Source: a virus. Taken from it: a stretch of 64,000 nt of DNA. Below, piece after piece: positions 16,206 to 63,707 of the stretch. The first letter of the stretch is position 1. Each line of letters opens with the position of its first letter. The translations under genes were made by a program, and so were the position numbers. The stretch lies in the IMG/VR virus record IMGVR_UViG_3300042393_000799, one strand, 5' to 3'. The notes beneath the pieces were generated by a model. It ran no database searches and had not been told where the DNA came from. It saw nothing but the letters and a program-made list of their open reading frames with translations.

Positions 16206-16497
16206 CTTTTGGTATTTCTTTTTCTATTTCTAGAGTCCATAGCCTATTATTAGGTACTACGAATTTTCTTTCATGTCCAAAAACATAAAAAGTTGTTTTA
16301 TATATATTTTGTCTAACTATTCTAGCTTTCTTAGCGCCTTTAATATAAACAATATCGTCTACATTAAAATCATTACCCCATAAAAACTGCATACCAATAA
16401 CAAGATTAGCAATCATGTCTTTGAATGTAAATGAAATTATAGCTACTGCTGTCACCCAACCCCATTCTGATATGTATTGTCCTATTAATTCTTTCAT
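16174..16497 (-). CDS. hypothetical membrane-associated protein
   Basis: 107-aa ORF with hydrophobic N-terminal segment. Confidence 0.4.
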   Translation of the reverse strand: MKELIGQYISEWGWVTAVAIISFTFKDMIANLVIGMQFLWGNDFNVDDIVYIKGAKKARIVRQNIYKTTFYVFGHERKFVVPNNRLWTLEIEKEIPKDETPENFPII

Positions 16498-17700: not shown

Positions 17701-17709
17701 TTATTAGTT

Positions 17710-18603: not shown

Positions 18604-19292
18604 ATAATTTTAATATTATTTCCTGCATGATAATGATCTCCTAAAAGAGACCATTTATTTGCATCTTGTTTAACCCACCAATATATATGAGCACCTTTAC
18701 CAGCACATGGCATTGTTACATCAAATCTTTCGAATTTTTCAGTCAACTGACCATTTAGTATCTCGTTTATATTAACCCATGTACCATCTAAATAATTATC
18801 ATCGACTATTACTATAGCACCTGCACCTAATTTGGCTTCAATGGCTTCGAATTCTCGCCAACCATGTAATGCACTAGGTAAAGAATCACGTAAATCCAAA
18901 TCCCATGAATCTAAATGAACAATATCTACATGCTCATCAAACCTCTTTAAAAATTGGACGGAGTCTTCAGTAAAAAATTCTACAAATTCCAAACCTAATT
19001 CTGCAAATGCTGTTTTAGATTTAGCTATTATAATAGGATCTATATCTACGACCCACATTTTACCACCAGTTACTAAAGCTATATTAGCAAAAAAAGTACC
19101 CATCATACCATCTTGCCATGATTGACTAGCTCCAGTTTCTATAATATTAATAGGACCAATAGCTTTTACTTTACCAATTATAGCGCTAACTATAGTATCA
19201 ATTTGTCTTGCTCTTTCAGGTCGACCTCCATTGGCTTCTAGACTAGTTTTATATTGATCTGCTAATCGATTTATTATCCAAAAATTATCCAT
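18585..19292 (-). CDS. putative SAM-dependent methyltransferase (Methyltransf_24/TylF-like), tentative
   Basis: IIETGASQS Gly-rich motif followed by acidic VVDID and HLDSWD blocks. Confidence 0.35.
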   Translation of the reverse strand: MDNFWIINRLADQYKTSLEANGGRPERARQIDTIVSAIIGKVKAIGPINIIETGASQSWQDGMMGTFFANIALVTGGKMWVVDIDPIIIAKSKTAFAELGLEFVEFFTEDSVQFLKRFDEHVDIVHLDSWDLDLRDSLPSALHGWREFEAIEAKLGAGAIVIVDDNYLDGTWVNINEILNGQLTEKFERFDVTMPCAGKGAHIYWWVKQDANKWSLLGDHYHAGNNIKIICQKEV

Positions 19293-22200: not shown

Positions 22201-22488
22201 ATCCATATTAGACGATCTAAATTCTACTTGTTCACCTCTTAAATCATATGCTTTACCAACAATTGGCATAAACGTACGATAAACCTTTATATTAGGGTCA
22301 TATCTAAGAGGGTCATCCAACTTTAGTGCTTTCGACACTAGTGGATGACCCTCGAATAAGAAAGGTTTACTAGAAAATACTATAAGCTGTGACTCACACG
22401 CTTTAGCTAACTTCCTAAGTGTAGGAATTGCTGCTATCGTGTCACCTAATGCAGGCGTATCTATACATATCGCAACTTGTTTTGACAT
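19285..22488 (-). CDS. multidomain glycosyltransferase (GT9 heptosyltransferase-like N- and C-terminal domains flanking a GT4 domain)
   Basis: N-term ICIDTPALGDTIAAIPTLRKL (GT9); middle FLAPHLSTGGMPQFV and EAIGHGLI (GT4/GT1); C-term GT9-like GISSGLSWFAWALGAKVIII. Confidence 0.75.
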   Translation of the reverse strand: MSKQVAICIDTPALGDTIAAIPTLRKLAKACESQLIVFSSKPFLFEGHPLVSKALKLDDPLRYDPNIKVYRTFMPIVGKAYDLRGEQVEFRSSNMDIRQFHAVSLGFSLTQDEMEMDLYIERERNLGFENYVIIHPTYTWASRTWDQDKWQELVDRLNDRGIPVVAVGRDSHEVGTFSVDKPVMNLNIKLGVNLLNDPTNDPAELRWMMNHKARAIVTMDSGLLHIAGTTDVNIIQLGSSIDPKLRAPYRKGSQDYKYKYIGGSCDIFCSSNMKYNIIEHGTIQAIPPQLHCLEYKPTFECHPTVDKTFDAVIDLYNDLLVDHVYMKPNTKEMTNKTKLLFLAPHLSTGGMPQFVLKRVEAMLDVKDFEIHLVEYTQYSDIYNVQRDQLIEKLGARFHSLGFLNSIDITERGERLKAKILEINPDIIHIDECPESFDGFNKIDQSAMEWLYNKQWKIVETSHNIWFDPNNKINDPDMYMMCTPYHLETFGNRDGLKPVVEYPILNQKPSAFDKAKSRAKLGLAIDKTHILNVGLWTQGKNQAEGVDIARIVEAQFPGKYHFHFVGNQAENFEQYWGPIMKKLPSNVTIWGERNDVDVFMSACDAFMFNSTWECSPLALREAIGHGLITFSRNLEQYKDMFTPYIVPFTDDLHGNVDQLIKTLKSSEAQGKNIPDDDLKRFTVQHIQWYQQCLTTPRGPQKPPTHKQPEWTLEYQDGPKLTIKSTGSGQLRAEFYDNQDLVWNATDLQAGSWYKPARNWWTQWTVKVYSNDQLVHSERLSLEGQELTVEMASSSLGDTLSFMGQLHTVIDTHKLSKLYVKTHKPWLFDKAWYSSKGIDIIDWSVPNKGALITLGVFYTMEEPWKRAEHKYDWRQIPLGKIASDRLGTEYVEQRPQLAREFLIKSTAKKRSIVIATQSTAQAKYWNNPTGWQETIDWCNSKEISVYHASKEGSQLKGVKQLPEELALVAGAINEAELFIGISSGLSWFAWALGAKVIIISGFTDPYVEFADAIYINNHQVCHGCWGWDTFDKGDWNWCPLWKGTHRQFECTKTIGSDRVINVINKELYG

Positions 22489-32798: not shown

Positions 32799-32799
32799 G

Positions 32800-32873
32800 T
32801 GGAGGTGACAGGAATCGAACCTGCGACCCTCTGCGTGCAAGGCAGATGCTCTAGCCAACTGAGCTACACCCCC
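32800..32873 (-). tRNA. tRNA-Ala-TGC: tRNA-Ala (anticodon TGC)
   Basis: rc reads GGGGGTGTAGCTCAGTTGGCTAGAGC...CTTGCAC...GGTTCGATTCC...CACCTCCA; cloverleaf with 7-bp acceptor, T-loop TTCGATT. Confidence 0.85.
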
Positions 32874-37294: not shown

Positions 37295-38002
37295 TTATAT
37301 AAAAGTTATTTCATTAGTTTCAGGATCCCAATCGAACGTTACAGGCTTATTCACATATTCATATCTTTCGTTTAAGATTGATGCGTTAAAGAAGTGAGTA
37401 CCGTTGTGGAATTTGTAACCATATCCACCGTGAATGTGTCCAAATACATGAATCTTAGGTGGTTGTTCATCTACCTTTTCTCTAAGTAATGCACATCCTA
37501 AATGTGGTTCATTATATGGAGGACCACTCACATCTAAATGATCTTGTGGAGGTCCATGTGTGATAAGAATATCAGTATCTTTAGGAATTGCTTCCCATTT
37601 TGACATTAATCCAGGACCACCCTTTGGTAAGTTAAATGCCCAACTATAGAATTCAGGTTGCCATGGACTACCATAAATAACGGTTTGTTGGTCATCTTGA
37701 TCCCATAGATCTAATCGATTATCTTGAAGATATTCAATGTTTTTATAAGAGGTATAAATCTCACTTGCCATTTCTGGGTCAGTTTCAAAGATTCTGTCAT
37801 GATTTCCTGCAATAAAAACTTTATTGCTATATTGCTCTAATCCTTCAAACCATTTACAAAATTGGTGAATATCCATTGGATTTCTACCAGAATTCATAAG
37901 GTCTCCTGCGTGGATTAATAAGTCTCCACCTGGGAGATCTTTAGGGTCGTAAGATAACTCATCGTGCTTTGTGTGAGTATCTGAAATTAATGTTATTCTC
38001 AT
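37295..38002 (-). CDS. calcineurin-like metallophosphoesterase
   Basis: motifs ISDTH, GDLMNSG, AGNHD, ITHGPP, GHIHGG. Confidence 0.78.
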   Translation of the reverse strand: MRITLISDTHTKHDELSYDPKDLPGGDLLIHAGDLMNSGRNPMDIHQFCKWFEGLEQYSNKVFIAGNHDRIFETDPEMASEIYTSYKNIEYLQDNRLDLWDQDDQQTVIYGSPWQPEFYSWAFNLPKGGPGLMSKWEAIPKDTDILITHGPPQDHLDVSGPPYNEPHLGCALLREKVDEQPPKIHVFGHIHGGYGYKFHNGTHFFNASILNERYEYVNKPVTFDWDPETNEITFI

Positions 38003-38857: not shown

Positions 38858-39334
38858 TTATTCTACGTCTTTTAATTCTGTTCTTAATCTACCAATTGCA
38901 CCTTCTAAAGTATTATAGACTGGAATGTTGTGTCGACTGCAAACTATATCTACATTTCCTTTGCGCCAAAATTCATCTGGACAACAAACAATCATTTTTT
39001 CAGATGCAGCATGCATACCAAGTTCTAATAAACTGATTGGACTCTTGGTTTCTGGAGAAAAGTACATGAAAATAATATCGCATTCATCTAACTTATTCAT
39101 TTCCCAATTTACTTGTCCACTGAATTGTGGATTAGATTCTTTTTGTTCCCATGAACTATCCCAATCATCTCTACGAGGATTGAAAAAAACCAAGTTTTGA
39201 CGATCTTTAAATAATTCAGGAATTACTGCTTGCCAATCTTCTGCTTTTCCCATTTCAATAGAACCTGCTAAAAATATTTTAACATGATGATCGTTATAAT
39301 ATGCATTTTTTGGTTCTGGTTTAATTACTTCCAT
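38858..39334 (-). CDS. nucleoside 2-deoxyribosyltransferase-like protein
   Basis: IFLAGSI...FNP...ECDIIFMYF...SLLELGMHAASEKMIVCCPD pattern of the family. Confidence 0.5.
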   Translation of the reverse strand: MEVIKPEPKNAYYNDHHVKIFLAGSIEMGKAEDWQAVIPELFKDRQNLVFFNPRRDDWDSSWEQKESNPQFSGQVNWEMNKLDECDIIFMYFSPETKSPISLLELGMHAASEKMIVCCPDEFWRKGNVDIVCSRHNIPVYNTLEGAIGRLRTELKDVE

Positions 39335-39593
39335 TTTCTTTGTGTATTGAATTTTTACAATTTCCTTTATGGGATCCCCATTGAGTATTACCCATTCCGA
39401 CTACAATATATTCACAACCTTCAAGAGTGTAGACTCTATAATTTTGATCAGAGTATTGTGAATTACTATCAAGTTCCATTCGATGCGGATTCGGTTGAGT
39501 TGAAACTTGTACATTACCTTCGCAGCTTGTAACCACAAAGGCTACAAGCGCTGCAAAGATTAATATTAATAATGTTACATTTTTTCTGTTCAT
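39321..39593 (-). CDS. small lipoprotein
   Basis: signal peptide + lipobox VTSC. Confidence 0.45.
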   Translation of the reverse strand: MNRKNVTLLILIFAALVAFVVTSCEGNVQVSTQPNPHRMELDSNSQYSDQNYRVYTLEGCEYIVVGMGNTQWGSHKGNCKNSIHKENGSN

Positions 39594-41173
39594 TATGAAT
39601 TAGTTAAACGTTCACGAATTTCTGTTAGTGTAGTTTGGTTTTCGAATTGGCCATCTTTATAGATAGTTTTTAATTTACCAGTGGCTTCATTTTCCCAAGT
39701 ACATTGATCTTCTAATAAGAAACATGTTTCGTCTCCGGCAACTCTTAATAAACCTTTTGCAGATTTCTTAATACCGTCATCAGTGATTGGATCTTTAAAG
39801 ATTTCACGACCTGTGATGATTTCTTCTGAATGTGTATAGTTACCATTCTCGTCTTTAACAGTTCTAAAATGTTCTTTAACTTCAACATAAGTTGCTTTCA
39901 TTGCAAAACCAAAAGTATCTCTAGTGTTATATTGGTATGTAAAACTTCCAACGCCTAATACAATATTTGTACTTGCGAAACCTTTTGCTTCTAATCTTGT
40001 AAAGATTTGTTCTGCACGATCTAACGTTATTGAATCTCCGTAGATTGCTCCAATATGAGAATCAAGAACTTTGTAACCTTGTTCATTGATAGTTCCACCG
40101 AATACATCCCAAAGTAATTCAATAACTCCTTTTACTTCTGGTTTGTTTAAATATTCATCGGTAGGATTAACTTCTGCTACTCCACCTAAGTAAGCAACCA
40201 CATCATTATCATGGTGCGCGTTTGTTTTAATAACACTTGCGCCGCAAATAATATCTACTGGATCACCAGAGTCGGGTCTAATAACTACCTTACCATCACG
40301 AGCTAAAATCTCTTCTTTCAAGGTAACAATATGTTCAGTACAAACTTTCCATAAGTCCCAAGTATCTGATACGATTGAAAGAATTCCTGTTGGATATGTT
40401 TCCATCAAGTTTCTAAATGTTCCAACCTCATCTTCTTTAGATCCAGCACACATAACTGAGTGTTCAGTTGCATTCACAGATCCAGCAACAAATCCAGTTT
40501 CTCCATAGAATTTACGAGCTCCAAAGATTGCTGGTAAACTGTCTGAACCTGAGAAACTTGTTAAGTGACCCAATCCTGAACTAATAGTTGCATCAATAGA
40601 ATCTAAACCTCTCATTGAAAAATCATGTGCTTGCCAATCTACGAACCAACCTTTTTCAGCATCGGTTTTTTCTTGCCATGATGTAAATAATTTACGGTAA
40701 GCATGTGCAATAGTTGCTGAAGTCATTGGTTTCCATAACAAGTTAGAAATAATTGTTTCTAAGTAGTTTGTAATCCAATAGAAATCTGGATGTGTATTGT
40801 AAATTGTCAATACAGGAACTCTCATTGGTACTAAAGAACCTTCTTCGATTGTTTTTACCACGATTGGTAAATAACCTAAATCATGTAATGCTTCAAAGTG
40901 ACTAACATCATAGTCAGTATTTAAGTACATTGACAATTCACGTTTCATTTCGCCGCAAACTTCATCTTTAGGTTTGCTAAAGAAATCTTTGTCAAATGCT
41001 TCGTGAATTTGTTTGATTACCATTTGTTGTCCAAATGATACTAATTGGTCGCATCCTTTAGGAGCATACTTATTACTTCTAGGTGTGAAGTTTGAATAAA
41101 CCAACGTTGTTCCTTTTGGATATTGTTGGTGATGTCCTGTTTTGTAACCGTCTGTTAAAAATAATGGGTTCAT
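39593..41173 (-). CDS. nadV: nicotinamide phosphoribosyltransferase-family enzyme (NadV/NAMPT, or the Namat variant)
   Basis: N-terminal signature LFLTDGYKTGHHQQYP and full-length (526 aa) similarity pattern to NAMPT. Confidence 0.82.
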   Translation of the reverse strand: MNPLFLTDGYKTGHHQQYPKGTTLVYSNFTPRSNKYAPKGCDQLVSFGQQMVIKQIHEAFDKDFFSKPKDEVCGEMKRELSMYLNTDYDVSHFEALHDLGYLPIVVKTIEEGSLVPMRVPVLTIYNTHPDFYWITNYLETIISNLLWKPMTSATIAHAYRKLFTSWQEKTDAEKGWFVDWQAHDFSMRGLDSIDATISSGLGHLTSFSGSDSLPAIFGARKFYGETGFVAGSVNATEHSVMCAGSKEDEVGTFRNLMETYPTGILSIVSDTWDLWKVCTEHIVTLKEEILARDGKVVIRPDSGDPVDIICGASVIKTNAHHDNDVVAYLGGVAEVNPTDEYLNKPEVKGVIELLWDVFGGTINEQGYKVLDSHIGAIYGDSITLDRAEQIFTRLEAKGFASTNIVLGVGSFTYQYNTRDTFGFAMKATYVEVKEHFRTVKDENGNYTHSEEIITGREIFKDPITDDGIKKSAKGLLRVAGDETCFLLEDQCTWENEATGKLKTIYKDGQFENQTTLTEIRERLTNS

Positions 41174-41186
41174 ATATTAATTGTTT

Positions 41187-41267
41187 TTAATTATAGAGTA
41201 AATATACATAAAAAACCTGACATAAAAAAATATCAGGTGATTTATTTTAAAAAAGTTATTAACAATC
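41187..41267 (-). promoter_or_regulatory. repeated intergenic cassette
   Basis: ttaattatagagtaaatatacat...acctgacataaaaaaatatcaggt...ttattttaaaaaagttattaacaatct. Confidence 0.65.
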
Positions 41268-41717
41268 TACAAGATTTGCTAAAACACTCTTAACTATACC
41301 GATTTCTGCACGACCTTGGTATCTTTTGTTAAATTCGCCAATAGTTTTACCTTGTAATGCTTGTGGATTTGTAACTATTCCACTAAATTCTTGCATAATT
41401 TCTGTAAGAGCATCTACAATTTCTTGAGGTTCCATTTGTGCTGGCATATATCTTCTTAAGATTGCACACTCTTCTGATTCTTTTTTAGACAATTCTGGTC
41501 TATTTGCCAAATCATACATTTTAATGGATTCCTCACGTTGCTTGATTCCTTTATTAATTATTTTAATAACCTCTTCATTCGTTGCAACCCAAGTTCCATT
41601 TCCCTTTTCAGCATTCGTGATTGCTGCTTTAATACTATTAAGTGCCATTTTGGCTACTTCGTCTTTTGCTTTCATTGCAGTTATAAAGTCTGCATTTATT
41701 TGTTCTCTAATTATCAT
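41259..41717 (-). CDS. YqeY/GatB-domain protein
   Basis: REQINADFITAMKAKD...LRRYMP pattern of YqeY family. Confidence 0.6.
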   Translation of the reverse strand: MIIREQINADFITAMKAKDEVAKMALNSIKAAITNAEKGNGTWVATNEEVIKIINKGIKQREESIKMYDLANRPELSKKESEECAILRRYMPAQMEPQEIVDALTEIMQEFSGIVTNPQALQGKTIGEFNKRYQGRAEIGIVKSVLANLVDC

Positions 41718-42552
41718 TGTCTATGTTTTTAGTTGGGTTTATTAATCCTTTAATGAACCATCTGTCTTGTGTAAATGTTGGAGTTTCTACAACTTGCCAT
41801 TTGTTTCTCATTACAATTTGAGTAGGGTCTATTACATGTGTTTCACCATCATTAATAAACTCTTTGGTTTTTACAAGTACTGGAACTTCCACCTTTGCAA
41901 TTACTGCACCTCGTTTTAGACGAAAATCATAGTCATTCCAATTGATTCCTTTTTGGAAGATCAATTCTTGCATGTCACTTGTTTTTTTACCATGTAATTC
42001 TTTAGTACTATAAAGACTTTGAGCAACTGAAGAAATTGAATTTCTTACAGCGTCTTGTTGTCTCCAGATAAAATAGTTTTCTACCTCATCAATAAATGGA
42101 ATTTGAAATGCTCTTGCGTCGAATTCAGCCATTTTGAATTTTTCAATATGTTCCGGTTCTAAAAAGATCATGCTATTTTTCATGTATCTCATTAACCTAA
42201 GTTTATTGAATTCTGCAGTGGCCATAGAAGCAGCAACTGATACCATTTTTTGTAGGTTGTTGTCAAACCAAGCGTGAGTTCCTAGGTCATCAAAGTCTGT
42301 TAGAACTAAACTAATCTCATCTGATTGTACATAACCAAATTTAGCACCTTGAATGTTTTTACATAAATATGCAGTAGTTGCATTCATGTCTTCAATAAGT
42401 CCTTGGTCAAATGGTCTCTCTAATCCTTTCGTATAGGTGTGAAAGGCTTTTCCGTCAATACGGATAATTGTAAATGTTCTCCTTGGGAGTTTGATTCTAG
42501 TTCTATCTTCGTAGAACTCTTTCATGCGATCGCCTAATGCATCGTTTTTCAT
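41707..42552 (-). CDS. Thg1-like 3'-5' nucleotidyltransferase (tRNA-His guanylyltransferase family)
   Basis: family motifs RIDGKAFHTYTKGL and GYVQSDEISLVL (cf. Thg1 RLDGRNFH / AYGQSDEYSF). Confidence 0.75.
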   Translation of the reverse strand: MKNDALGDRMKEFYEDRTRIKLPRRTFTIIRIDGKAFHTYTKGLERPFDQGLIEDMNATTAYLCKNIQGAKFGYVQSDEISLVLTDFDDLGTHAWFDNNLQKMVSVAASMATAEFNKLRLMRYMKNSMIFLEPEHIEKFKMAEFDARAFQIPFIDEVENYFIWRQQDAVRNSISSVAQSLYSTKELHGKKTSDMQELIFQKGINWNDYDFRLKRGAVIAKVEVPVLVKTKEFINDGETHVIDPTQIVMRNKWQVVETPTFTQDRWFIKGLINPTKNIDNDN

Positions 42553-42629
42553 AATATATGTTATTGTGCAACCGTCGTTAGTTGGATGCTGGTTATAAGT
42601 ATTATATTAAATACTTTTATTTTGTTTCA

Positions 42630-43205
42630 CTATTTTAAAGTGATTTGCAAAGTTGCTTGATATGCCGAATGTTTAAATGGATCCCCTTCAGTTTCTCTAG
42701 AAGCTCCGGCAAATAATTCTCTTGCTCTTTCAATACCATGATATTTCATGATTAGTGTTGCTGCAGATGGAACTGTTATAGGCATCTTTTCTCCATGCTC
42801 TTCGATAATTTTATCAACTTCAATTTTGATTTGTTCAACAAAGGTTGGTTTCAATCTATCCAAAGACTCTTCTAACATTTCAGAGAAGCATGTACCACCA
42901 TTATAGAATTGTCCCATAAATGAAAGGCTTCCGTCGCTATTTCTAGTAACATTCATAAAGTATTCTGAATCTTCAGATTCTACATGATCGATAACTCTAT
43001 AAAGTTTCTCTCCATAGATAAAATACTCTTCCTTTTGACTGTTTCTTTTATTAGAGTACTCGTCAAAAGCATCCATAAAATCTTCTTGCCAATCCTCGCC
43101 TAATTCAACATCAAATCGTTTTGCAATACTTCTACAAGTCTCTTCTAAACTTTTCTCAATTTTGACTGGATATAATTTTCCGGTATGAAATTCTGTTCTA
43201 CTCAT
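42630..43205 (-). CDS. hypothetical protein
   Basis: 191-aa ORF. Confidence 0.4.
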   Translation of the reverse strand: MSRTEFHTGKLYPVKIEKSLEETCRSIAKRFDVELGEDWQEDFMDAFDEYSNKRNSQKEEYFIYGEKLYRVIDHVESEDSEYFMNVTRNSDGSLSFMGQFYNGGTCFSEMLEESLDRLKPTFVEQIKIEVDKIIEEHGEKMPITVPSAATLIMKYHGIERARELFAGASRETEGDPFKHSAYQATLQITLK

Positions 43206-43357
43206 CTTCGTCTTTATTAAAATCCGTTATTTTTACTAAAATATAAAATGGAACTATAATTGCATAAAATTCCCATTGGTACCAGCTGATATTTGCAAAT
43301 GCTGATAGAGCAAATCCTAAATATGATGGTGCTAATAATTCTACTAATCTTTTCATA

Positions 43358-43642
43358 TTAAATTACTTTAAATTCTGTTCTACTAATTCTTTCAGTGCTT
43401 CCTCCGTGTTCAGTTGCAAGTCTTCTATCTAATGCTTCAATAAAATACTGTTGTGCTCTATTGTCTGGTCTAGTATCTGGATCGATAAATCTTAAAAACA
43501 TATCAACTTGCTCTGGTCTATAACCTCTCATGAATTTTTGATTGAATATTTCAAAGTTTGTTAAAATTTTAATATATCCATGTTCAAATAAATATTGAAC
43601 TGCAGCATCTACTAATCTTGTAGTTTTACCTGATTGTCTCAT
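43358..43642 (-). CDS. mini P-loop protein (Walker A at residues 4-9)
   Basis: MRQSGKTTRLVD; stop codon immediately upstream in frame so start is genuine. Confidence 0.35.
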   Translation of the reverse strand: MRQSGKTTRLVDAAVQYLFEHGYIKILTNFEIFNQKFMRGYRPEQVDMFLRFIDPDTRPDNRAQQYFIEALDRRLATEHGGSTERISRTEFKVI

Positions 43643-44138
43643 TTCTTAATTGATTTTTTACAAGAGTTAATGCTTGTCCTAAAAGATTTAAACCTAACCA
43701 ATATGATGGATCATCAATTCCTTCGGCATTTTCATCAAGACCAATTCCCCAAATATTATCTAATGGAGAAGCCTCTACAAAGATACGATCACCAGTATTT
43801 AACATTTCTTCTCTTAATCCAGCATTTTGTCTGAATTTTGCCAAGTTTCCTTCATAAACAATTGCCAAACAATTTTTATCCCAAGTTGCTTTATCAAAGT
43901 TTTGGATTTGTCTACCATATTTCTTTTGCTCTCTTGGATTCGTTTCCTCCATAATCAAACTTGCTACAATATCATCTCCAAATAATAATGCCTTTTGATG
44001 CATCATATATTGTTCACATGAATTATATTCAATCTTGTCAATTGTCATTGGAGCTTTATGCCATTGTGAGTAAATTCCATTCCAGAAAAATACATGTTTA
44101 TCTGTTACTTTCATATTATTTGTTTTTAAATTGTTCAA
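43626..44138 (-). CDS. NADAR-domain protein (YbiA-like ADP-ribose/N-glycosidase superfamily)
   Basis: FFW...SQW...EYNSCEQYMMHQKALLF...GRQIQNFD..W...KF.QN..L...LLNTG...VEASP.DNIWGIG. Confidence 0.75.
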   Translation of the reverse strand: MNNLKTNNMKVTDKHVFFWNGIYSQWHKAPMTIDKIEYNSCEQYMMHQKALLFGDDIVASLIMEETNPREQKKYGRQIQNFDKATWDKNCLAIVYEGNLAKFRQNAGLREEMLNTGDRIFVEASPLDNIWGIGLDENAEGIDDPSYWLGLNLLGQALTLVKNQLRNETIR

Positions 44139-44328
44139 GATTTTTTACCTTTTCTCTGAAACTTTCTAAAACTTCATATTCGGTTGTTTGTTTTAATAAT
44201 GAAATGGCTTTTTCTAAAGCATTGTCCTTTTCTATATTAACAACTACTTCATTATCAATTGAAGCTTTAAATGAAACTAATTTAGAACCTTTTCCTAAAA
44301 TTATTCCTTCTGGTGAAGATTGTGACAT
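44116..44328 (-). CDS. hypothetical small protein
   Basis: 70-aa ORF. Confidence 0.3.
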   Translation of the reverse strand: MSQSSPEGIILGKGSKLVSFKASIDNEVVVNIEKDNALEKAISLLKQTTEYEVLESFREKVKNLEQFKNK

Positions 44329-44331
44329 ATT

Positions 44332-44826
44332 CTATTTGTTTAAAATTCTTATTGCTCTATTTGTGCATTCTTTAGTTAATCCATAACCAATATCGATACA
44401 ATCTGGATGATTAATATTGGTCGATGTTTGTACAAAGTTCATTCGTTGACTCTTTAACATATCCGTGTCATCATCAAGAATAACGTAATTAGTTATTTCA
44501 GGTTGTCTATCGAGAATTGACTGTATTTCATCTCCACGAACCATTTCTGGGCCACCTTCTAAATCATGGTTCCATCTAAGATCTGGTGTAATTCCAATTA
44601 TTTCTCCAGGATATTGACGTTGTTTCCACATTCTATGTAGTCTTTCCAATCCCATGTGTCTCCATGAAGAACTAATAACTAATTTTGCTCCGGTTTCATC
44701 AATGATTCTACCTAGATTTTCTACAAATTCAGGATGGAATATTCCACCGAAATCATCATGTCCTTGAGGAATTACATTTAATACACCGTCAAAATCTAGA
44801 AAAATAACCTTCATCTTATTTAACAA
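44332..44826 (-). CDS. HAD-superfamily phosphatase of the RNA-repair-associated (HAD_SAK/PNKP-like) type
   Basis: VIFLDFDGVLN at N-terminus; small single-domain HAD. Confidence 0.5.
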   Translation of the reverse strand: MLNKMKVIFLDFDGVLNVIPQGHDDFGGIFHPEFVENLGRIIDETGAKLVISSSWRHMGLERLHRMWKQRQYPGEIIGITPDLRWNHDLEGGPEMVRGDEIQSILDRQPEITNYVILDDDTDMLKSQRMNFVQTSTNINHPDCIDIGYGLTKECTNRAIRILNK

Positions 44827-45029
44827 CTACCGAATCTATAAGATTGAAATCCGCCTTCTTCGCTTGGATGAAATCCTAATTCATCTAATCTTTTCGTGTC
44901 CTCTTCGGATACATCTTCTTCGTCAATGTGACAAACATAAAGAACATCATGTTCGCAATGAGTAGGCCATTTTTGTTCAGGATCCATGTATTTAGCTAAT
45001 ATGATTAGCGCTTCTATTAAATCTTTCAT
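44820..45029 (-). CDS. hypothetical small protein
   Basis: 69-aa ORF. Confidence 0.3.
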   Translation of the reverse strand: MKDLIEALIILAKYMDPEQKWPTHCEHDVLYVCHIDEEDVSEEDTKRLDELGFHPSEEGGFQSYRFGSC

Positions 45030-45032
45030 TTC

Positions 45033-45596
45033 TTATGGTTTATAAATTACTACCGACACTTTCATGTCTTTTAATTCTGTTTGAATAATCCTTTTAATTC
45101 TATTCCAATCTCCACCTGCTAATCCTGCTCCAATCTTTGGCAATCCAATATGTTTACCTTCAAATTGAAAATTGATCTTACGCATACAAAGAGTTAATGC
45201 CTCATAATCTAAAGGTTTTGAAACTCCATCGGTATGATTCTTACCATATCTGAATTGAGTGTATGAATTTACAACTGATAATTCAGGTTCATTCCTTTTA
45301 TTATCGGCGTCTTCTAAAGACCAGATTGTATTTTGACCAATGACGAATGTTTGCCAATCGATACATCCGAGCTTTTCAATGGTTGCTCCCCAAGTTTCCA
45401 TTTCAAAACGGTCAACTCCAAACGCTTTTGCCATTTGCGGTGCTATTCCAGCTCCCATATTTGACAAGCAATTACAACCATGTGTAATTACATCAAACTT
45501 TCCCTGTTTTGCTAGTGCAATTAAATCACCTTCTATTTCTTGATAATTTGTATCAACATCTATCATCGATTTCATAAATTTGTTTAATTCTCCCAT
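45033..45596 (-). CDS. Macro-domain (ADP-ribose-binding/processing) protein
   Basis: ITHGCNCLSNMGAGIA and GLPKIGAGLAGG blocks. Confidence 0.65.
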   Translation of the reverse strand: MGELNKFMKSMIDVDTNYQEIEGDLIALAKQGKFDVITHGCNCLSNMGAGIAPQMAKAFGVDRFEMETWGATIEKLGCIDWQTFVIGQNTIWSLEDADNKRNEPELSVVNSYTQFRYGKNHTDGVSKPLDYEALTLCMRKINFQFEGKHIGLPKIGAGLAGGDWNRIKRIIQTELKDMKVSVVIYKP

Positions 45597-46093
45597 TATG
45601 CTAGTCTAAATCGTTTTAAAAATTCTCTTAAGAAAATGATCTGATCTGCTTCCTTTTCTGTTTCAGCAAATTTCATCTTCCATTCATAATAATCCATTTC
45701 GATTGGTGTTGTACCATCTATATAATATGGACCAACATAATCAGGCCAGTGGGTTTTGTCAAATGCTCTGTCATCAACTAAGAAAACTACAGCTGTCATT
45801 TGATCACCCAAATCTGGCTCATGAAATTCTCCAACTTTAATACCTCGATCTGTTAATTCAAAATAGTTTTGCTGAAGAGTTCCTAATCTCATGCTACTGT
45901 CATTAGTAGTTCCACCATTTAAAATAATAAATGTTTTGTCTATTTTCGCCCATTCTTGGTATTCTGGAGTATTAAAGAAGTCAAGTCCATATTCTACAAC
46001 AGCATGTCCAAATTGGATACCTTGTTGGATTGGGCTTAAATTATAAGGCACCAATCCATACATTCGATATTCTCTATTGTAAATAGATTCCAT
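45596..46093 (-). CDS. possible PTH2-like (peptidyl-tRNA hydrolase 2 / DUF2000-like) protein, tentative
   Basis: LVPYNLSPIQQGIQFGHAVV resembles PTH2 GKIAAQxxHA core. Confidence 0.3.
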   Translation of the reverse strand: MESIYNREYRMYGLVPYNLSPIQQGIQFGHAVVEYGLDFFNTPEYQEWAKIDKTFIILNGGTTNDSSMRLGTLQQNYFELTDRGIKVGEFHEPDLGDQMTAVVFLVDDRAFDKTHWPDYVGPYYIDGTTPIEMDYYEWKMKFAETEKEADQIIFLREFLKRFRLA

Positions 46094-46228
46094 TACTCTG
46101 CTTCCTCGTTTTCAGATTCTTCTACTTCAACTTCTCTTAATTCATATCTTGAACCTAAGATTGGATCGTGTACTAGTACAATAACTTCTTGTACTTGCTT
46201 TTCTACTGCTTTTGCTTTTTTAGCCATC

Positions 46229-46444
46229 TTATATTAAATTTAATTGTGTTAGTTCTTCAATGGCAGCATCGAATGCTTCTTGCCATGTTCTGTATAAATA
46301 CCAATCTCTTACTTCAATTTTTTCATAGTTACCAAAGTGTTCATATTTGTATATGTCAAATGCAAACTTTGGAGCACTTGTACGGTCTACTTCTATTTCT
46401 ATAACGTAACCATGCTGTGTAAATAAAGAATCTATTGTATACAT
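46229..46444 (-). CDS. hypothetical small protein
   Basis: 71-aa ORF. Confidence 0.3.
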   Translation of the reverse strand: MYTIDSLFTQHGYVIEIEVDRTSAPKFAFDIYKYEHFGNYEKIEVRDWYLYRTWQEAFDAAIEELTQLNLI

Positions 46445-47376
46445 TATATTACTTTAAATGCAGTTGTGTTTGTTTTTACATCATATTCATTATCAGCAAT
46501 ATCTCTATGAGAATTTGTTGTGTAAATACGTTCGAAATATTTGTTTAGCTCTGTAAAACCAGCACTAAATATTCCATGAGTAACTACTAAATAAATTTTA
46601 GCACTTGGTCTGCTTGCTTTAATAGCTTTAGCTAATTCAATAAAAGTTCTACCACCATCACAAATATCATCAATGATTACATATTTCATATCATCATTAA
46701 CTGAGTTAGGGTCTCCGATAGATCCTGGTAAGTTTGGTACTTCTGTTTTAAGAATGTTACCAGTTCTCATATCTCTAACTTTGTTTGCCGTAACAATATT
46801 TTGGATTTGAAACTTCTTAGCAACATCAAAGATTTTCTTGTATGCACCAGCATCTGGGCTTACTAAACAAATTCTTTCTTGAGCATCTCTCTTATTATCA
46901 ATATCTGTAAGTGCATATTTAACTACTGTATGATTATCTGTTTTCTCATAGTTATTTAAACATGCTTCTAAAACATCTGAATGTGGATCCAATGTAATTA
47001 CTGTTATGAAGTTTAAAGAGTTAATGATTGGACAAATAACTTGTTTCAAATAGTTAACACCACCGTCAACAAATTTACGATCTGAACGAGCTCCCATGAA
47101 GTATGGAACGTAAAGTGCGATTTCTCGATTTGGTTTAATATTTCTGATTGCTGCTGTTGCACAAATAATTAATTCTAAGTCCTTAAAACTATTTAAACGT
47201 GAACTGATTTTTACAGCATCTTCATATATCATTAAGTCATTCCAATCAATAAGGTCTACTGTTTGTTGACCATCTGGAAATTGACTAATTTTGTATTTAA
47301 TGTCTGATTTTTCTGGATTAACTAAGTCTAATGTTATCATCTTTAAGTTGTTTTTAATTATATGTAAATATACCAA
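46444..47376 (-). CDS. prs: ribose-phosphate pyrophosphokinase-family enzyme (Prs, or the ADPR-pyrophosphokinase Adps variant)
   Basis: PYFMGARSDRK, TLDPHS, VSPDAGAYKK, PRTase motif VIIDDICDGGRTF. Confidence 0.8.
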   Translation of the reverse strand: MVYLHIIKNNLKMITLDLVNPEKSDIKYKISQFPDGQQTVDLIDWNDLMIYEDAVKISSRLNSFKDLELIICATAAIRNIKPNREIALYVPYFMGARSDRKFVDGGVNYLKQVICPIINSLNFITVITLDPHSDVLEACLNNYEKTDNHTVVKYALTDIDNKRDAQERICLVSPDAGAYKKIFDVAKKFQIQNIVTANKVRDMRTGNILKTEVPNLPGSIGDPNSVNDDMKYVIIDDICDGGRTFIELAKAIKASRPSAKIYLVVTHGIFSAGFTELNKYFERIYTTNSHRDIADNEYDVKTNTTAFKVI

Positions 47377-47434
47377 AAAGTTTTGACATAAAAAAATATA
47401 TGTGTGATTATTTTATCAAAACTTGTTAACAATT
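47354..47434 (-). promoter_or_regulatory. repeated intergenic cassette (weak hairpin variant)
   Basis: ttaattatatgtaaatatacc...ttgacataaaaaaatatatgtgtga...ttattttatcaaaacttgttaacaatt. Confidence 0.55.
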
Positions 47435-47820
47435 ATACGCCCAGTGATTTGAGTACCATTAGGTGTATCTTCTGTTGCCCAATCTATAAGATTACCTTTC
47501 ATAATTTCTTCACATATCTCTCTTGCAATTCCAGCTTTATACATGTCTAGTGCAAAATTCCCGCTAGTAGATGCATTACCAGATCCACTTGTAGAAAAAT
47601 CAGTGCCATACATCATTTCCATATTAGACATGTTTCTGGTGCTTCTGATTTGTATAGGATTTCCTATTTTAGTATCGTAAACAAATGCCTTTCCAGTTTC
47701 ATTTTTAGGCTTTCTTTTATAGAATAAAGAAAATGGAAATAATAAGTATAATATCTCTTTCCAATCAAAATTCTTTAGGTTCTGATCCATTCGATCGCAC
47801 CATTCATTAAATCTTTTCAT
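47416..47820 (-). CDS. hypothetical protein
   Basis: 134-aa ORF (start overlaps cassette; may be shorter). Confidence 0.35.
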   Translation of the reverse strand: MKRFNEWCDRMDQNLKNFDWKEILYLLFPFSLFYKRKPKNETGKAFVYDTKIGNPIQIRSTRNMSNMEMMYGTDFSTSGSGNASTSGNFALDMYKAGIAREICEEIMKGNLIDWATEDTPNGTQITGRIIVNKF

Positions 47821-52729: not shown

Positions 52730-53374
52730 TTACCAATTTTTCTTGTAATGCACATCATCAACCCATGAGAATAAACGTGTCTCTTCAACATCATGCAAGA
52801 TAATAGTCTTATCAGTTACTTTGTCATTATAGAAATATTCATAATTAAATAAAGCGACATCCAGATCCATTTTTTCAATAATCTTATTATTGAATGTTTT
52901 ACATCCATGAGCCCATGTAATTCTATCATAAACACTAAGACATTCATTTATGATTCTACTTTGAGGTGTAGATCCATAAACTGTACAATCAATAAGAGTA
53001 TTGTGTTCTTGAGTTGGTTTCATACCTGCAAAGAATGTATGTTCTTCTGAGAGTTGATCCAATATTATATCAAATGGTCTAATTGGTTTTGCATCTATAT
53101 CACAATAAATACCTCCAAAATCTCTAAGTAATAATAACCTAACTCTATCGGCAATAAAAGCCCATTTATAAATTTCAGGTTCTTTTACATAGTTTTGTAA
53201 AAATGGATCATCTTTGTACAAATCATTGAAAATATCATCATGACTCCATAACTTATATTCCCAATCTGGATGCATTGCTTGCATCTCTTCTCCAAATCTT
53301 TTGCACCAATCTGGTACTTCTTTATAGCCAATCCAAACTTGATGTAGTTTCTTTGGTATTTTATTTACTGTCAT
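52730..53374 (-). CDS. DxD glycosyltransferase (GT32/OCH1-like 'Gly_transf_sug')
   Basis: KIPKKLHQVWIG N-terminal motif and CDIDAKP DxD motif. Confidence 0.55.
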   Translation of the reverse strand: MTVNKIPKKLHQVWIGYKEVPDWCKRFGEEMQAMHPDWEYKLWSHDDIFNDLYKDDPFLQNYVKEPEIYKWAFIADRVRLLLLRDFGGIYCDIDAKPIRPFDIILDQLSEEHTFFAGMKPTQEHNTLIDCTVYGSTPQSRIINECLSVYDRITWAHGCKTFNNKIIEKMDLDVALFNYEYFYNDKVTDKTIILHDVEETRLFSWVDDVHYKKNW

Positions 53375-54664: not shown

Positions 54665-55957
54665 TTAAAAATCTCTTTTTGTTTCGTAAATAGCTTTTAT
54701 AGTTGGAAATCTCAAACTAGTTCCACCGTTTTGGTTGTGAGTTTCTTCGAAATATTGAACAGTGACTTGTTTGCCGATAATATCATTAGGATTGTTGTAA
54801 TAATGACGTCTCTGTTCATGATTAAAACCACTACCAACTTGAACACGATATCCTTTATGTTCAATAATAATATTTTTCAACATTAATTCAGAAACTTCTG
54901 AACCATCAACAATAACTCGCTGTATATCGTTTTCAACATCTACAACAATATACTCTGCATCATGAAATGATTTTACTTTAAGAACCTCATCAGATCTCTT
55001 ACCTTTGTAAGTTGTATTCTTACGTAACATAAGTCCTTCCCATCCTTCATTTTTGGAATGCTCTAATAAACTAGCAAACATATCGTCTGCACATATGAAT
55101 TGATCTAAGACTGAAATACCTACTAAATCATTTGGAACAATGCTTTCAATGTTTGCAATACGTTGACCAAATTTAGTAGTTGAAACTTTAGATTCAAATT
55201 CTTTGATTGTTAAGTGGTCAAAGATATAATAATGTGGTTTCTCAATTGTGTAATCTTTACGCTTGATCTCTTTCATAATACTTGTGAAATCTTCGTTTCC
55301 ATTTGCATCTACAATACAAATCTCACCATCTAATACTGTATTAATAAGACCAAGTTGTCTAATTGAAGGTTTAAGATTATCAAGTGTTAAGAATTCATTT
55401 CCTACACGAGAATAAAATCTAGGTTCACCTTGTCCATCGATAATACATACACATCGACATCCATCTAATTTACGACTAACAAACCAACCATCTGACCATT
55501 TAACTTTCTTTTGAGTTTTTTCATCATATGCTTTTGCTAATGCAACATCAAATGTAGGAATTAAATTAGGGATTGCAGTATTAATCATGGATGCTGTAGC
55601 TCTTGTTTTAAGATTACGATCAATGATATTAAAGATTAGCTCCTCGGATTCAGGATATGTGCCAACAAACGCATTGACTGCTTGAATAGCGGAGTGGCCA
55701 GTAATATAACGAATACTAAGGTCATCGAGCAAACTAAAAAGATCGTTATACACGTTTTCTGAAGCAACCAAGTCGCTACGTTTTTTACAAGTTTCTGAAG
55801 TAACATAATATTGTTTAAAAGTATTGTATGTATACTCGAGTACTTTACGAATTGCTGGATTATTAGCATACGCCTTTAATACATTCAATTTGTCAGTATT
55901 ACTATTTGTAGAATTTTGAGCATCTACGAACTCTTGTATTTGTTTTAAATCTTGCAT
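54665..55957 (-). CDS. ATP-dependent DNA ligase
   Basis: nucleotidyltransferase motif I KLDGCR, motif III DGEICIVD, motif IV EGLMLRK, motif V LKVK. Confidence 0.75.
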   Translation of the reverse strand: MQDLKQIQEFVDAQNSTNSNTDKLNVLKAYANNPAIRKVLEYTYNTFKQYYVTSETCKKRSDLVASENVYNDLFSLLDDLSIRYITGHSAIQAVNAFVGTYPESEELIFNIIDRNLKTRATASMINTAIPNLIPTFDVALAKAYDEKTQKKVKWSDGWFVSRKLDGCRCVCIIDGQGEPRFYSRVGNEFLTLDNLKPSIRQLGLINTVLDGEICIVDANGNEDFTSIMKEIKRKDYTIEKPHYYIFDHLTIKEFESKVSTTKFGQRIANIESIVPNDLVGISVLDQFICADDMFASLLEHSKNEGWEGLMLRKNTTYKGKRSDEVLKVKSFHDAEYIVVDVENDIQRVIVDGSEVSELMLKNIIIEHKGYRVQVGSGFNHEQRRHYYNNPNDIIGKQVTVQYFEETHNQNGGTSLRFPTIKAIYETKRDF

Positions 55958-61889: not shown

Positions 61890-61891
61890 TG

Positions 61892-61965
61892 TAGTCAATG
61901 TAAGACTCGAACTTACGACCTCCTCGGTATCAGCGAGGCGCTCTAACCAACTGAGCTAAATGACT
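61892..61965 (-). tRNA. tRNA-Ile-GAT: tRNA-Ile (anticodon GAT)
   Basis: rc AGTCATTTAGCTCAGTTGGTTAGAGCGCCTCGCTGATACCGAGGAGGTCGTAAGTTCGAGTCTTACATTGACTA; one U-U mismatch in acceptor stem. Confidence 0.75.
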
Positions 61966-61969
61966 ATGG

Positions 61970-62662
61970 TTATCTTGATGAAAATTTTCTTTGTAAGTCC
62001 AATGTTTCGAAAAATGGATTTAATCTAACGTATGTACTATTTGATCTTTGAATATCTGTAGCATTTTCACATAAACATGCATCTGCTGGAAATATACCTT
62101 TTTTATTTATAAAATTTAAGATTTCTTGGGCACCTTTGGGTGTTATTATATATCCATATGCGCCTCTAAAAGTGCTTCCAGTTACAGACTTATCTCCATA
62201 AAATTTACTAATAGGGTGTTTTTTAACTCCACTAGTATAAAGTTTGATAGCATCATTATAAGCTTTAAAGTGTTCATGTTCTGTAACAGCACCTGAATTA
62301 TTAAAGGGTAAATATGCATCTAAATGACATGCATTTTCTATTAAGTGTAGTATTTCTCTAGGATCTCTAACTAAAACAGCATCTTGTTCAAGAATTAAAA
62401 AAGGTTGATCTTGTTTAGAGCACTCGTCCCATAATAAATAATGACTTGCTAAACAACCGATAGTACCATCGGTCCAATCTTCCATATTAACATATGCTGA
62501 GGGTTTTGCATTATAAGATTTTAAAACTTCAATGCCTTTTCTGCCTACAACTCCATCAAATAATTCATAGTCGATATCGAATTTGTTCAAAGACTTTATG
62601 GTATCTTTTACCATGGTCTCTGAGAATTCATTGCCCTTTAGATAAATTATATGTGTTTTCAT
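61970..62662 (-). CDS. family GT25 glycosyltransferase (LPS core glycosyltransferase-like)
   Basis: HIIYLKGNEFSE...YELFDGVVGRKG...GTIGCLASHYLLW...FLILEQDAVLVRD pattern of GT25. Confidence 0.65.
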   Translation of the reverse strand: MKTHIIYLKGNEFSETMVKDTIKSLNKFDIDYELFDGVVGRKGIEVLKSYNAKPSAYVNMEDWTDGTIGCLASHYLLWDECSKQDQPFLILEQDAVLVRDPREILHLIENACHLDAYLPFNNSGAVTEHEHFKAYNDAIKLYTSGVKKHPISKFYGDKSVTGSTFRGAYGYIITPKGAQEILNFINKKGIFPADACLCENATDIQRSNSTYVRLNPFFETLDLQRKFSSR

Positions 62663-62904
62663 TTGTTGTAATATTTATATATGTATCTAATAAAGCTGGC
62701 TAGTTAAATGAATAAAATAACAGGATGCTGATTTGCTTTTTCCAATAAAAGTTTTTAAATTTGCTGGAAGCATCCTTTATATTTTAAAAATACGGAATAC
62801 AGTTTGTTTGAGTAAAAGTCAAAGTTTGTAAATTTGCTGTATGTATTCCAATATGGTCAGGTTTCTGTTTTTGCTTACCAGTGTGTTTACCAATTTCACC
62901 ACTC

Positions 62905-62975
62905 CTCAATTTTTCATAGTTAATTTGTTGAGGAGGTAGGACTCGAACCTACAATGTACCGGTTCTGATTGCTTT
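62905..62975 (-). other. tRNA-like 3' fragment (T-arm + acceptor-like strand) with no complete cloverleaf
   Basis: rc ...GTAGGTTCGAGTCCTACCTCCTCA followed by a hairpin using the same CTCCTCA; no D/anticodon arms found. Confidence 0.3.
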
Positions 62976-63062
62976 TTAATTGCTGTAAGAAACCTTTAAT
63001 ATTTTAAAGAACTTTGTTATTTGATAATTATACTTGATCAATTAAAAAAGTTTCATTTTTTG

Positions 63063-63147
63063 CGGAAGATGAAGGATTCGAACCTTCGGGACCGTGAAGT
63101 CCACAACTTTAGCAAAGTTGCACAATAGACCACTCTGACAATCTTCC
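63063..63147 (-). tRNA. tRNA-Ser-GCT: tRNA-Ser (anticodon GCT), type II with long variable arm
   Basis: rc GGAAGATTG...CAACTTTGCTAAAGTTG...GAAGGTTCGAATCCTTCATCTTCCG. Confidence 0.8.
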
Positions 63148-63154
63148 AATTTTG

Positions 63155-63228
63155 GGTGATTAATGGGATTCGAACCCATGCTATCAGTACCACAAACTGA
63201 CGTGCTAACCGCTAACACTATAACCACC
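63155..63228 (-). tRNA. tRNA-His-GTG: tRNA-His (anticodon GTG) with genome-encoded G-1
   Basis: rc G-GTGGTTATAGTG...TCAGTTTGTGGTACTGA...ATGGGTTCGAATCCCATTAATCACC; 8-bp acceptor including G-1:C73. Confidence 0.8.
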
Positions 63229-63292
63229 ATGTATATGTTCATTATTTTCATGTGTTCATTGGCAATGAACATTCATTTATAATGAACACTAG

Positions 63293-63372
63293 TACCCAGG
63301 GAGAGACTCGAACTCTCAAGCTTTCGCCACGGTTTCTAAGACCGCCGTGTCTACCAATTCCACCACCCAGGC
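63293..63372 (-). tRNA. tRNA-Leu-TAG: tRNA-Leu (anticodon TAG), type II
   Basis: rc GCCTGGGTGGTGGAATTGGTAGACAC...GGCGGTCTTAGAAACCGT...GAGAGTTCGAGTCTCTCCCTGGGTA; acceptor stem uses three G-U pairs. Confidence 0.7.
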
Positions 63373-63467
63373 ATAAAGCCGATCCCGTAGATCGGCAGCT
63401 CAACTTAAGGTATCGAGTTTGCGAGAATAAATCTCTGACCAGGACATGTACCCTTTGTGCACCGTCG

Positions 63468-63542
63468 TACTTTCTACAGGGTTCGAACCTGTGACCTCCT
63501 CGGTGTAAACGAGGCGCTCTGAACCAACTGAGCTAAGAAAGC
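63468..63542 (-). tRNA. tRNA-Val-TAC: tRNA-Val (anticodon TAC)
   Basis: rc GCTTTCTTAGCTCAGTTGGTTCAGAGCGCCTCGTTTACACCGAGGAGGTCACAGGTTCGAACCCTGTAGAAAGTA. Confidence 0.8.
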
Positions 63543-63707
63543 GTGGAGCTTCACTTTACCATAACCTATAGCCATATTGGACTATAACTTTACTCTACGA
63601 CAGCTTTTAACTGAGAGATCGCAGTATTATGAGTGAAGCATATTCAGTAAACTTCTTTTTGTATCAATAAACCTTATTAGTTTATTGTAACAATTTTTAG
63701 TTTATTG

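Follow-up and report, generated by a model that had tools for sequence, protein, structure and literature searches.

Why does a phage keep a gene for a predicted tRNA-end polymerase among genes for NAD+ metabolism? The question is raised by IMG/VR virus record IMGVR_UViG_3300042393_000799, of which a stretch of 64,000 nt (the window; GC content ~31%) was analysed. At 41–46 kb a Thg1-like protein (TLP) gene of the bacterial type adjoins a YqeY gene and lies close to genes for a HAD phosphatase and for a protein with a putative PTH2-like fold. An earlier note on this DNA thought that these genes, together with the phage's own tRNA set, look like a module for restoring tRNAs damaged by host anticodon nucleases or tRNA-targeting toxins; it left unmentioned a NADAR and a macro-domain gene inside the interval as well as Adps-like and Namat genes immediately outside it. 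With these included, the interval reads as the interior of a NARP1-AP locus to which a NADAR gene has been added, and the HAD gene falls in a variable cassette, so the idea of a self-contained module is not upheld. The locus is instead probably a composite, co-expressed counter-defence toolkit inside a stretched NARP1-AP locus, and the main recognizable job of the operon looks like rebuilding NAD+ destroyed by bacterial defences.

Results

Candidate NARP1-AP genes enclose the tRNA-end genes

NARP1 is a phage pathway of two enzymes, Adps and Namat, that rebuilds NAD+ from ADP-ribose (ADPR) and nicotinamide (bioRxiv 10.1101/2024.02.11.579819). NARP1-AP adds a Poa1p-like macro-domain phosphatase, Adpp, and also uses the ADPR-1''-phosphate made by the aRES defence (bioRxiv 10.64898/2026.01.28.702374). 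Homology identifies candidates for all three enzymes of the published NARP1-AP pathway at the locus. The Namat candidate matches the SPbetaL1 Namat (9W5X/9W5W) with an E-value of 2.7e-144, whereas true Nampts reach 1e-60 or weaker, and its segment GSFTYQYNTRD is identical to the SPbetaL1 segment that bears the reported clamp aromatics F392 and Y396 (PMC12774641). The candidate carries an insertion of ~37 aa (EVKEHFRTVKDENGNYTHSEEIITG..., residues ~430–465, window 40132–40242) that neither the solved SPbetaL1 protein nor the Namat of the near-identical strains L085 and L086 (489 aa) has.

The Adps candidate shows 29–31% identity to its Prs-like counterparts in the NARP1 systems of phages FADO and Wyman. 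It matches solved Prs structures with only 2e-12 and scores 77 bits against the NCBIfam Prs models, below all of their cut-offs (at least 113). The open reading frame (ORF) list starts the gene at a TTG (47376); the gene calls in related contigs (291 aa) and the alignment of the intergenic repeat described below favour the ATG at 47340 (MITLDL...) as the likely true start. A 52-nt stretch of the gene is 92–94% identical to Prs-like genes of rV5-like coliphages, and this was the only match when 38.8–47.4 kb was compared by megablast with INPHARED.

The macro-domain protein, the Adpp candidate, matches phrog_335 (‘phosphatase’) with 3e-43 and, among structures, BT1257 (2fg1; 1.3e-9) and Poa1p (6lfu; 4e-4); its score in Pfam Macro is 17.1, under the cut-off of 22. 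A homologue in Vibrio phage Wyman, 29.5% identical over 89% of the length of the macro protein, is positioned between Prs-like and NAPRT-like genes, the three-gene NARP1-AP layout. Together, Adps, the macro protein and Namat would convert ADPR or ADPR-1''-phosphate plus nicotinamide into NAD+ after its depletion by a defence system. The NADAR protein, by homology a further ADP-ribose-type N-glycosidase, scores well above the cut-offs of both PF08719 (9.8e-49, 166.2 bits versus 35.1) and TIGR02464 (9.6e-42, 142.8 bits versus 73.7).

The three protein families and their order are the same as in the NARP1-AP of Vibrio phage Gary and related Thalassavirus phages. The spacing is different. Published systems are adjacent operons of two or three genes, with Adps and Namat next to each other or one gene apart, whereas the present candidate locus spans ~7.7 kb and has 13 ORFs plus a terminator-promoter element between Adps and Namat, which lie 5.2 kb apart. 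Namat here also seems to begin its own transcription unit. The published survey of NARP1 covered only two genes on either side of each system.

A putative early transcription unit from Adps to YqeY

Every ORF between 38.8 and 49 kb is carried on the minus strand of the ORF list, in tight packing (Table 1). The junctions from Adps to YqeY are overlaps or gaps of at most 3 nt, except for 77 nt between the gene for a 191-aa protein (p191) and TLP; the gap between YqeY and Namat is 85 nt. Ten intergenic copies of a ~110-bp repeat occur in the window, each on the minus strand and each laid out as a hairpin, a T-run, a TATAAT-like box and finally the start codon (ATG) of the gene that follows. Each also has a conserved TTGTTCGTAAC-like box, and a GTATATTAGC..TATAATTAAAA box stands between the terminator-like hairpin with its T-run and the ATG; repeats of this kind are also present in related metagenomic contigs. 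The family probably marks unit boundaries of the early or accessory region.

An nhmmer scan of the window found the span from 47328 to 41279 free of repeats, and the only minus-strand terminator-like hairpins within 38–48 kb (41238–41215 and 38560–38537) both lie inside repeat copies. Because repeat copies stand at both ends with none between, and hairpins occur only in repeats, we infer that Adps (47340) to YqeY (41259) forms a single early-type transcription unit of 14 ORFs. Namat would open a second unit that continues through a 90-aa ORF and a Nuc_deoxyri_tr2 gene (NDT). A scan for sigma-70 promoters gave 40 matches versus 51 in shuffled sequence and is uninformative, because the shuffled sequence gave more. 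Besides the NARP1-AP genes, two kinds of gene would be placed in the first unit: the TLP–YqeY pair with p191 upstream, and a swap-in HAD_SAK_2/NADAR cassette.

Table 1. Positions of the features discussed, from Adps to NDT in the direction of transcription, with the remaining repeat copies and the tRNA-His gene.
Feature	Position	Strand	Basis and remarks
Intergenic repeat copy, ~110 bp	47328..47442	-	Directly upstream of Adps; nhmmer 1.3e-20; predicted transcription-unit start
Prs-like protein, candidate Adps (ADP-ribose pyrophosphokinase of NARP1)	46444..47340	-	Pfam Pribosyltran and Pribosyl_synth
71-aa ORF (p71)	46229..46444	-	tblastn 73–79% identity in 7 related loci; 97% in L085
44-aa ORF	46093..46227	-	Putative coding; single weak tblastn match
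165-aa protein (p165), PTH2-like fold (weakly supported)	45596..46093	-	Large uncharacterized family; AlphaFold2 model and Foldseek
Macro-domain protein, candidate Adpp (ADP-ribose-1''-phosphate phosphatase of NARP1-AP)	45033..45596	-	phrog_335
Flexible cassette island (p69, HAD_SAK_2, p70, NADAR, p94, p52, p191)	42629..45036	-	blastn versus L085 and L087; gene calls
69-aa ORF (p69)	44820..45029	-	No Pfam or PHROG family; tblastn in 2 related loci
HAD_SAK_2 phosphatase, 164 aa	44332..44826	-	PF18143 2.5e-27; phrog_1818 6e-28
70-aa ORF (p70)	44116..44328	-	No Pfam or PHROG family; no tblastn match in 82 related loci
NADAR-domain protein (YbiA-type N-glycosidase family)	43626..44138	-	PF08719, TIGR02464
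94-aa ORF (p94)	43358..43642	-	No Pfam above cut-off, no PHROG; tblastn 76–77% identity in 2 related loci
52-aa ORF (p52)	43198..43356	-	No Pfam family; tblastn in 10 related loci
191-aa protein (p191)	42630..43205	-	Usual upstream neighbour of TLP in the clade, or replaced by a 120-aa version of its N-terminal domain
Bacterial-type Thg1-like protein (TLP)	41707..42552	-	Predicted 3'-5' template-dependent nucleotidyltransferase; PF04446, phrog_4717, 4KGK
YqeY/GatB-tail-like protein	41259..41717	-	PF09424 4.7e-31
Intergenic repeat copy	41162..41279	-	YqeY/Namat gap; hairpin 41238–41215 and TATAAT-like box; predicted boundary of both units
Namat (nicotinamide ADP-ribose transferase of NARP1), 526 aa	39593..41173	-	PDB 9W5X/9W5W
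90-aa ORF (p90)	39321..39593	-	No Pfam family; tblastn in 5 related loci; 90% identity in L085
Nucleoside 2-deoxyribosyltransferase-like protein (NDT)	38858..39334	-	PF15891 1.4e-35; present in 14 related loci
Repeat copies	56718-56603, 52475-52363, 51827-51732, 47442-47328, 41279-41162	-	Intergenic
Repeat copies	38595-38487, 32756-32664, 31616-31520, 8588-8477, 7685-7610	-	Intergenic
Phage tRNA-His	63154..63228	-	ARAGORN, Rfam; gene-encoded G-1

TLP and YqeY form a putative coupled pair

The TLP is recognized by Pfam Thg1 (PF04446) with an E-value of 2e-29 and 102.6 bits (gathering cut-off 29.2) and by phrog_4717 with 3.5e-86. Of the solved structures, the Bacillus thuringiensis TLP (BtTLP, 4KGK; 1.2e-59 over residues 4–220) matches best, far ahead of Candida Thg1 (3WBZ; 2.4e-13) and human THG1 (3OTB; 1.4e-05). 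The RIDGKAFH and GYVQSDEIS segments, by which the earlier note had recognized the protein, align with the equivalent segments of 4KGK and 3WBZ, including the metal-binding carboxylates in RxDG and SDE. As in BtTLP (4KGK/4KGM) and other bacterial and archaeal TLPs, the motifs RIDG..FH, SDEIS and YFIWRQQDA are kept; unlike BtTLP, the window protein is phage-encoded, carries a ~60-aa C-terminal extension, is coupled to a YqeY protein and is set in an NAD+ locus. With the eukaryotic Thg1 proteins (3WBZ, 3OTB) it has the fold and the catalytic motifs in common, but the similarity is far weaker, and the CaThg1 segment CHINNLYN is aligned to AVRNSISS. The earlier proposal that the enzyme is of the bacterial, template-dependent repair type rather than a G-1-adding Thg1 is supported by these comparisons. 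An identical protein bears the name tRNA(His) guanylyltransferase in its public source.

Addition of G-1 was ruled out as the role of this TLP-type enzyme. It is unnecessary because, as had been pointed out before, the tRNA-His gene of the phage already encodes G-1: position +1 is G63227, and position -1, G63228, stands opposite the discriminator, C63155. Seven tRNA genes (Ala, Ile, Ser, His, Leu, Val and Lys) are present in the window, at 32799–32873 and within 61891–63781, six of them clustered at 61.9–63.8 kb; there are no truncated Rfam tRNA matches among them. Enzymes of the BtTLP type repair truncations of the 5' acceptor stem, not cuts in the anticodon loop. The window TLP would most likely refill missing 5' nucleotides of the tRNA acceptor stem, with the 3' strand as template.

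The flanking gene had been called a YqeY/GatB-domain protein, and the PF09424 match bears this out (108.2 bits versus a cut-off of 27, covering profile positions 1–139 of 143). Its ATG and the TLP stop overlap by 11 nt, an arrangement from which the pair appears to be translationally coupled. In Deinococcus GlnRS and in GatB the YqeY domain serves as a module that binds tRNA (PMC1865053 and PMC2811023). By analogy with the Deinococcus GlnRS domain and the GatB tail, the phage YqeY is probably a tRNA-binding helper for TLP.

The earlier note had advised looking for other RNA-repair enzymes elsewhere in the genome. A search of the coding-strand ORFs of at least 120 aa, together with two long plus-strand ORFs at 58.7–61.8 kb, found no RNA ligase, polynucleotide kinase, RtcB or Tpt1 in the window, and so a full heal-and-seal pathway is not visible there. 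The sole ligase in the window is an ATP-dependent DNA ligase (54665–55957), and the window has no CCA-adding enzyme.

A strain-variable cassette carries HAD_SAK_2 and NADAR

In near-identical strains (84–93% nucleotide identity) the whole of 42629–45036 is replaced by 0.54 kb with a 120-aa and a 64-aa ORF, and one and the same TLP protein follows the long version in some samples and the short one in others. Because of this replacement in front of the same TLP, the HAD and NADAR genes are classed as swap-in cassette genes, and the TLP–YqeY pair and the NARP1-AP genes as the stable frame.

The HAD protein had been described as a DxDGV-type phosphatase of the kind found fused in RNA-repair enzymes, and it does pass the cut-off of PF18143 (96.3 bits versus 27.5), the HAD domain of the ‘Swiss Army Knife’ RNA-repair proteins, with the DxDxV motif I (DFDGVL) at residues 10–15. 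Unlike that domain it is a stand-alone protein, unfused to kinase, ligase or nuclease domains, and it sits in a cassette that sister strains do without. The T4 Pnkp phosphatase is a functional analogue. Direct coupling of HAD_SAK_2 to TLP is seen in loci L023–L027; in L025, of another lineage, the HAD_SAK_2 stop and the TLP start overlap. The idea of HAD as an obligate TLP partner was nevertheless rejected, since among 12 close HAD homologues just two have a TLP nearby.

The protein next to the candidate Adpp may have a PTH2-like fold

Between the 44-aa ORF and the macro gene lies p165, the ‘possible PTH2’ of the earlier note. It gave no Pfam match at E ≤ 0.1, PTH2 (PF01981) included, and no PDB chain at E ≤ 10, either by single-sequence phmmer or by hmmsearch with a 46-sequence profile; its family comprises 3112 homologues, unannotated. 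An AlphaFold2 model built from the family (pLDDT 79) has PTH2 structures as all of its ten best Foldseek matches, although these are weak (E 0.012–0.2; TM 0.44–0.53, target-normalized). The invariant residues are Q23, Q27, H30, A31 and E92-P-D-L-G-D-Q98, which we take to resemble PTH2 motifs. Compared with PTH2 of M. jannaschii (2ZV3) and P. horikoshii (1WN2) and human Bit1 (1Q7S), p165 is without detectable sequence or profile similarity, is ~50 aa longer and has an additional C-terminal helical part. The model thus weakly suggests a PTH2-like fold in a protein whose sequence does not show it to be a PTH2 family member. Of the two assignments for which profile searches had been put forward as the check, HAD passes and PTH2 does not. 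HAD and p165 might plausibly clean RNA ends or free stalled (acyl- or peptidyl-) tRNA.

Conservation of the locus and neighbours of TLP in other phages

The window proteins were compared by tblastn with 80 IMG/VR loci that have TLP homologues at 47–94% identity. The frame Adps–p71–p165–macro–[variable]–p191–TLP–(YqeY)–Namat–p90–NDT recurs in close relatives. Adps or Namat lies within 10 kb of TLP in 25 of the 36 loci whose TLP is at least 62% identical, some of them rearranged (L018–21, L022, L026 and L029/33/74). A distant jumbo-phage lineage (L063, L105) has Nampt-like, NADAR, macro, HAD, Prs-like and TLP genes within 11 kb.

For cultured phages, the 164 TLP-bearing records of INPHARED were searched by tblastn with a chimeric Namat–spacer–TLP query, which joins same-strand matches within ~5 kb. 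Two lineages were found, the Bacillus phages FADO, PK-3 and PJN02 and the Rhodococcus phages Grayson and Weasels2; up to ~83 further records may hold both genes at separate sites. In FADO (L001, OM236516.1, 35–40 kb) and Weasels2 (L094, KX774321.1, 93.9–100.5 kb) a Namat-type gene lies 2–5 kb upstream of the Thg1-like gene. Because only these two lineages show the adjacency, which is about what chance and regional clustering of accessory genes would give, a universal TLP–Namat link was dropped.

TLP adjoins a CCA-adding enzyme in Aeromonas phage 4L372D, a polynucleotide kinase in mycobacteriophage DmpstrDiver and an RNA ligase in Xanthomonas phage XacN1. In Rhodococcus phage Weasels2 its neighbours are a 2H phosphoesterase and a tRNA gene; the surroundings there include a phosphoesterase, a tRNA-Met gene and a 2H-type ‘RNA ligase’. 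Since enzymes acting on RNA ends neighbour TLP in unrelated phages, these cases support a general role of phage TLPs at RNA ends. Comparative genomics had already led to the proposal that phage Thg1 and PTH2, with macro and NADAR, are factors of RNA repair and ribosome rescue (PMC7824862).

Other genes of the window

The NDT gene directly behind Namat is a conserved feature of the clade, and a calcineurin-like metallophosphoesterase (37295–38002) is encoded ~1 kb beyond it; either product could be an additional accessory for nucleotide or NAD processing. Distant from the NARP1 locus, a stand-alone NUDIX hydrolase (16494–16982) could have ADPR or an NAD-type compound as substrate. Cell-envelope sugar genes are numerous (12534–13286, 17308–22488, 52730–53374 and 61970–62662) and encode a KDO8P/DAHP-synthase-like enzyme, an NAD-dependent epimerase/dehydratase, a 1067-aa protein with GT9 and GT1 glycosyltransferase parts, a DXD glycosyltransferase and a GT25 LPS-type glycosyltransferase. 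This set suggests that the phage alters the host surface.

Discussion

On the reading favoured here, the genes would lie together because they are co-expressed as counter-defence functions, and shared expression against both NAD+ depletion and tRNA attack would explain the grouping. Several points weigh against it. All functions at the locus are assigned by homology and the transcription unit by sequence motifs, and the hairpin in the repeat copy before Adps is weak and escaped the terminator scan. Membership of p165 in PTH2 finds no support in Pfam, phmmer or profile hmmsearch, all of which came back empty, and the RNA ligase, polynucleotide kinase, RtcB and Tpt1 sought among the window ORFs of at least 120 aa were not found. 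The association is also local: it is kept in only two of the 46 loci whose TLP is less than 62% identical, and among the cultured phages Namat and TLP come within ~5 kb in only the two lineages named above.

The tRNA-end genes might instead be what the locus is about, with TLP, YqeY, HAD and the PTH2-like protein as a dedicated module for tRNA repair and translation rescue against anticodon nucleases or tRNA toxins, and the NAD genes as unrelated neighbours. There is at least some support for all four assignments, the phages listed above place RNA-end enzymes next to TLP, HAD_SAK_2 is directly coupled to TLP in L023–L027 and the pairing of phage Thg1 and PTH2 in such a role has been proposed already (PMC7824862). 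The arrangement nevertheless makes this unlikely. Within an apparent single unit, macro and NADAR stand among the four genes, with Adps and Namat on either side; near-identical strains keep TLP–YqeY without HAD, and ten of the 12 close HAD homologues lie away from TLP. No RNA ligase or polynucleotide kinase was found among the window ORFs searched, and TLPs are known to mend 5' acceptor-stem truncations rather than anticodon-loop cuts. At the other extreme, the cluster might be incidental: independent accessory genes would have collected at an early-region recombination hot spot and have nothing but their location in common. Cassette exchange takes place exactly at the gap upstream of TLP, the order and content of p52, p94, HAD, NADAR and YqeY differ among relatives, HAD homologues are scattered elsewhere and the adjacency of TLP and Namat in cultured phages is near chance. 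We think this very improbable all the same, as the frame Adps–p71–p165–macro...TLP–(YqeY)–Namat–NDT is kept across many contigs with TLPs 75–94% identical, the TLP stop and YqeY start overlap, and the recognizable genes all suit counter-defence themes.

A third possibility is a single coupled pathway, in which NADAR, HAD, the PTH2-fold protein and perhaps TLP all feed NARP1. Either non-canonical NAD+ breakdown products or ADP-ribose conjugates would be turned into linear ADPR, or ADP-ribosylation of RNA or tRNA ends would be undone and the freed ADPR recycled to NAD+. Feeder enzymes inserted in NARP1 loci have a precedent in Adpp and in RyDEP, the latter carried within the NARP1 locus of mycobacteriophage DyoEdafos (bioRxiv 10.64898/2026.05.28.727677). 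In that case, as here, near-identical phages brought to light strain-variable genes inside a NARP1 locus, which there feed or complement the pathway; the protein family here is different, and no RyR-domain gene was found. Processing of ADP-ribose by NADAR and macro domains (PMC7824862), the apparent co-transcription of the genes and the recurrence of Nampt-like, NADAR, macro, HAD, Prs-like and Thg1 genes within 11 kb in L105 and L063 would also fit. Yet no known chemistry connects ADPR with YqeY or with a 3'-5' polymerase, the cassette is gained and lost independently of the core genes, and the association fades with phylogenetic distance. There is no evidence for one biochemical pathway joining all the genes of the locus, and we consider such coupling quite unlikely. 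Its furthest form has the NARP1-AP operon of this clade grown into a single ‘ADP-ribose and tRNA-end’ repair circuit. Defence toxins would use up NAD+ in ADP-ribosylating tRNA or RNA ends or in damaging them otherwise; the macro, NADAR and PTH2-fold enzymes would strip the adduct, HAD and TLP–YqeY would then rebuild the RNA end, and Adps and Namat would recycle the freed ADPR to NAD+. The chance that this is correct seems slight; if it were, bacterial-type TLPs and YqeY would for the first time have a role in physiology.

The composite, co-expressed toolkit therefore stays our preferred reading. The protein families are all known, and phage RNA repair and NAD+ reconstitution have both been published. 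What is new is the architecture, a ~7.7-kb NARP1-AP locus with an embedded TLP–YqeY pair, a PTH2-fold family and a strain-variable HAD/NADAR cassette. NARP1 loci can be far more spread and cassette-rich than the surveyed operons of two or three genes, and surveys of two flanking genes would miss NADAR, HAD_SAK_2 and the PTH2-fold family, all of them candidates for feeder or counter-defence activities. A coupled TLP–YqeY pair that is apparently co-transcribed with a proven class of anti-defence enzyme offers a natural test bed for the roles of both proteins in vivo.

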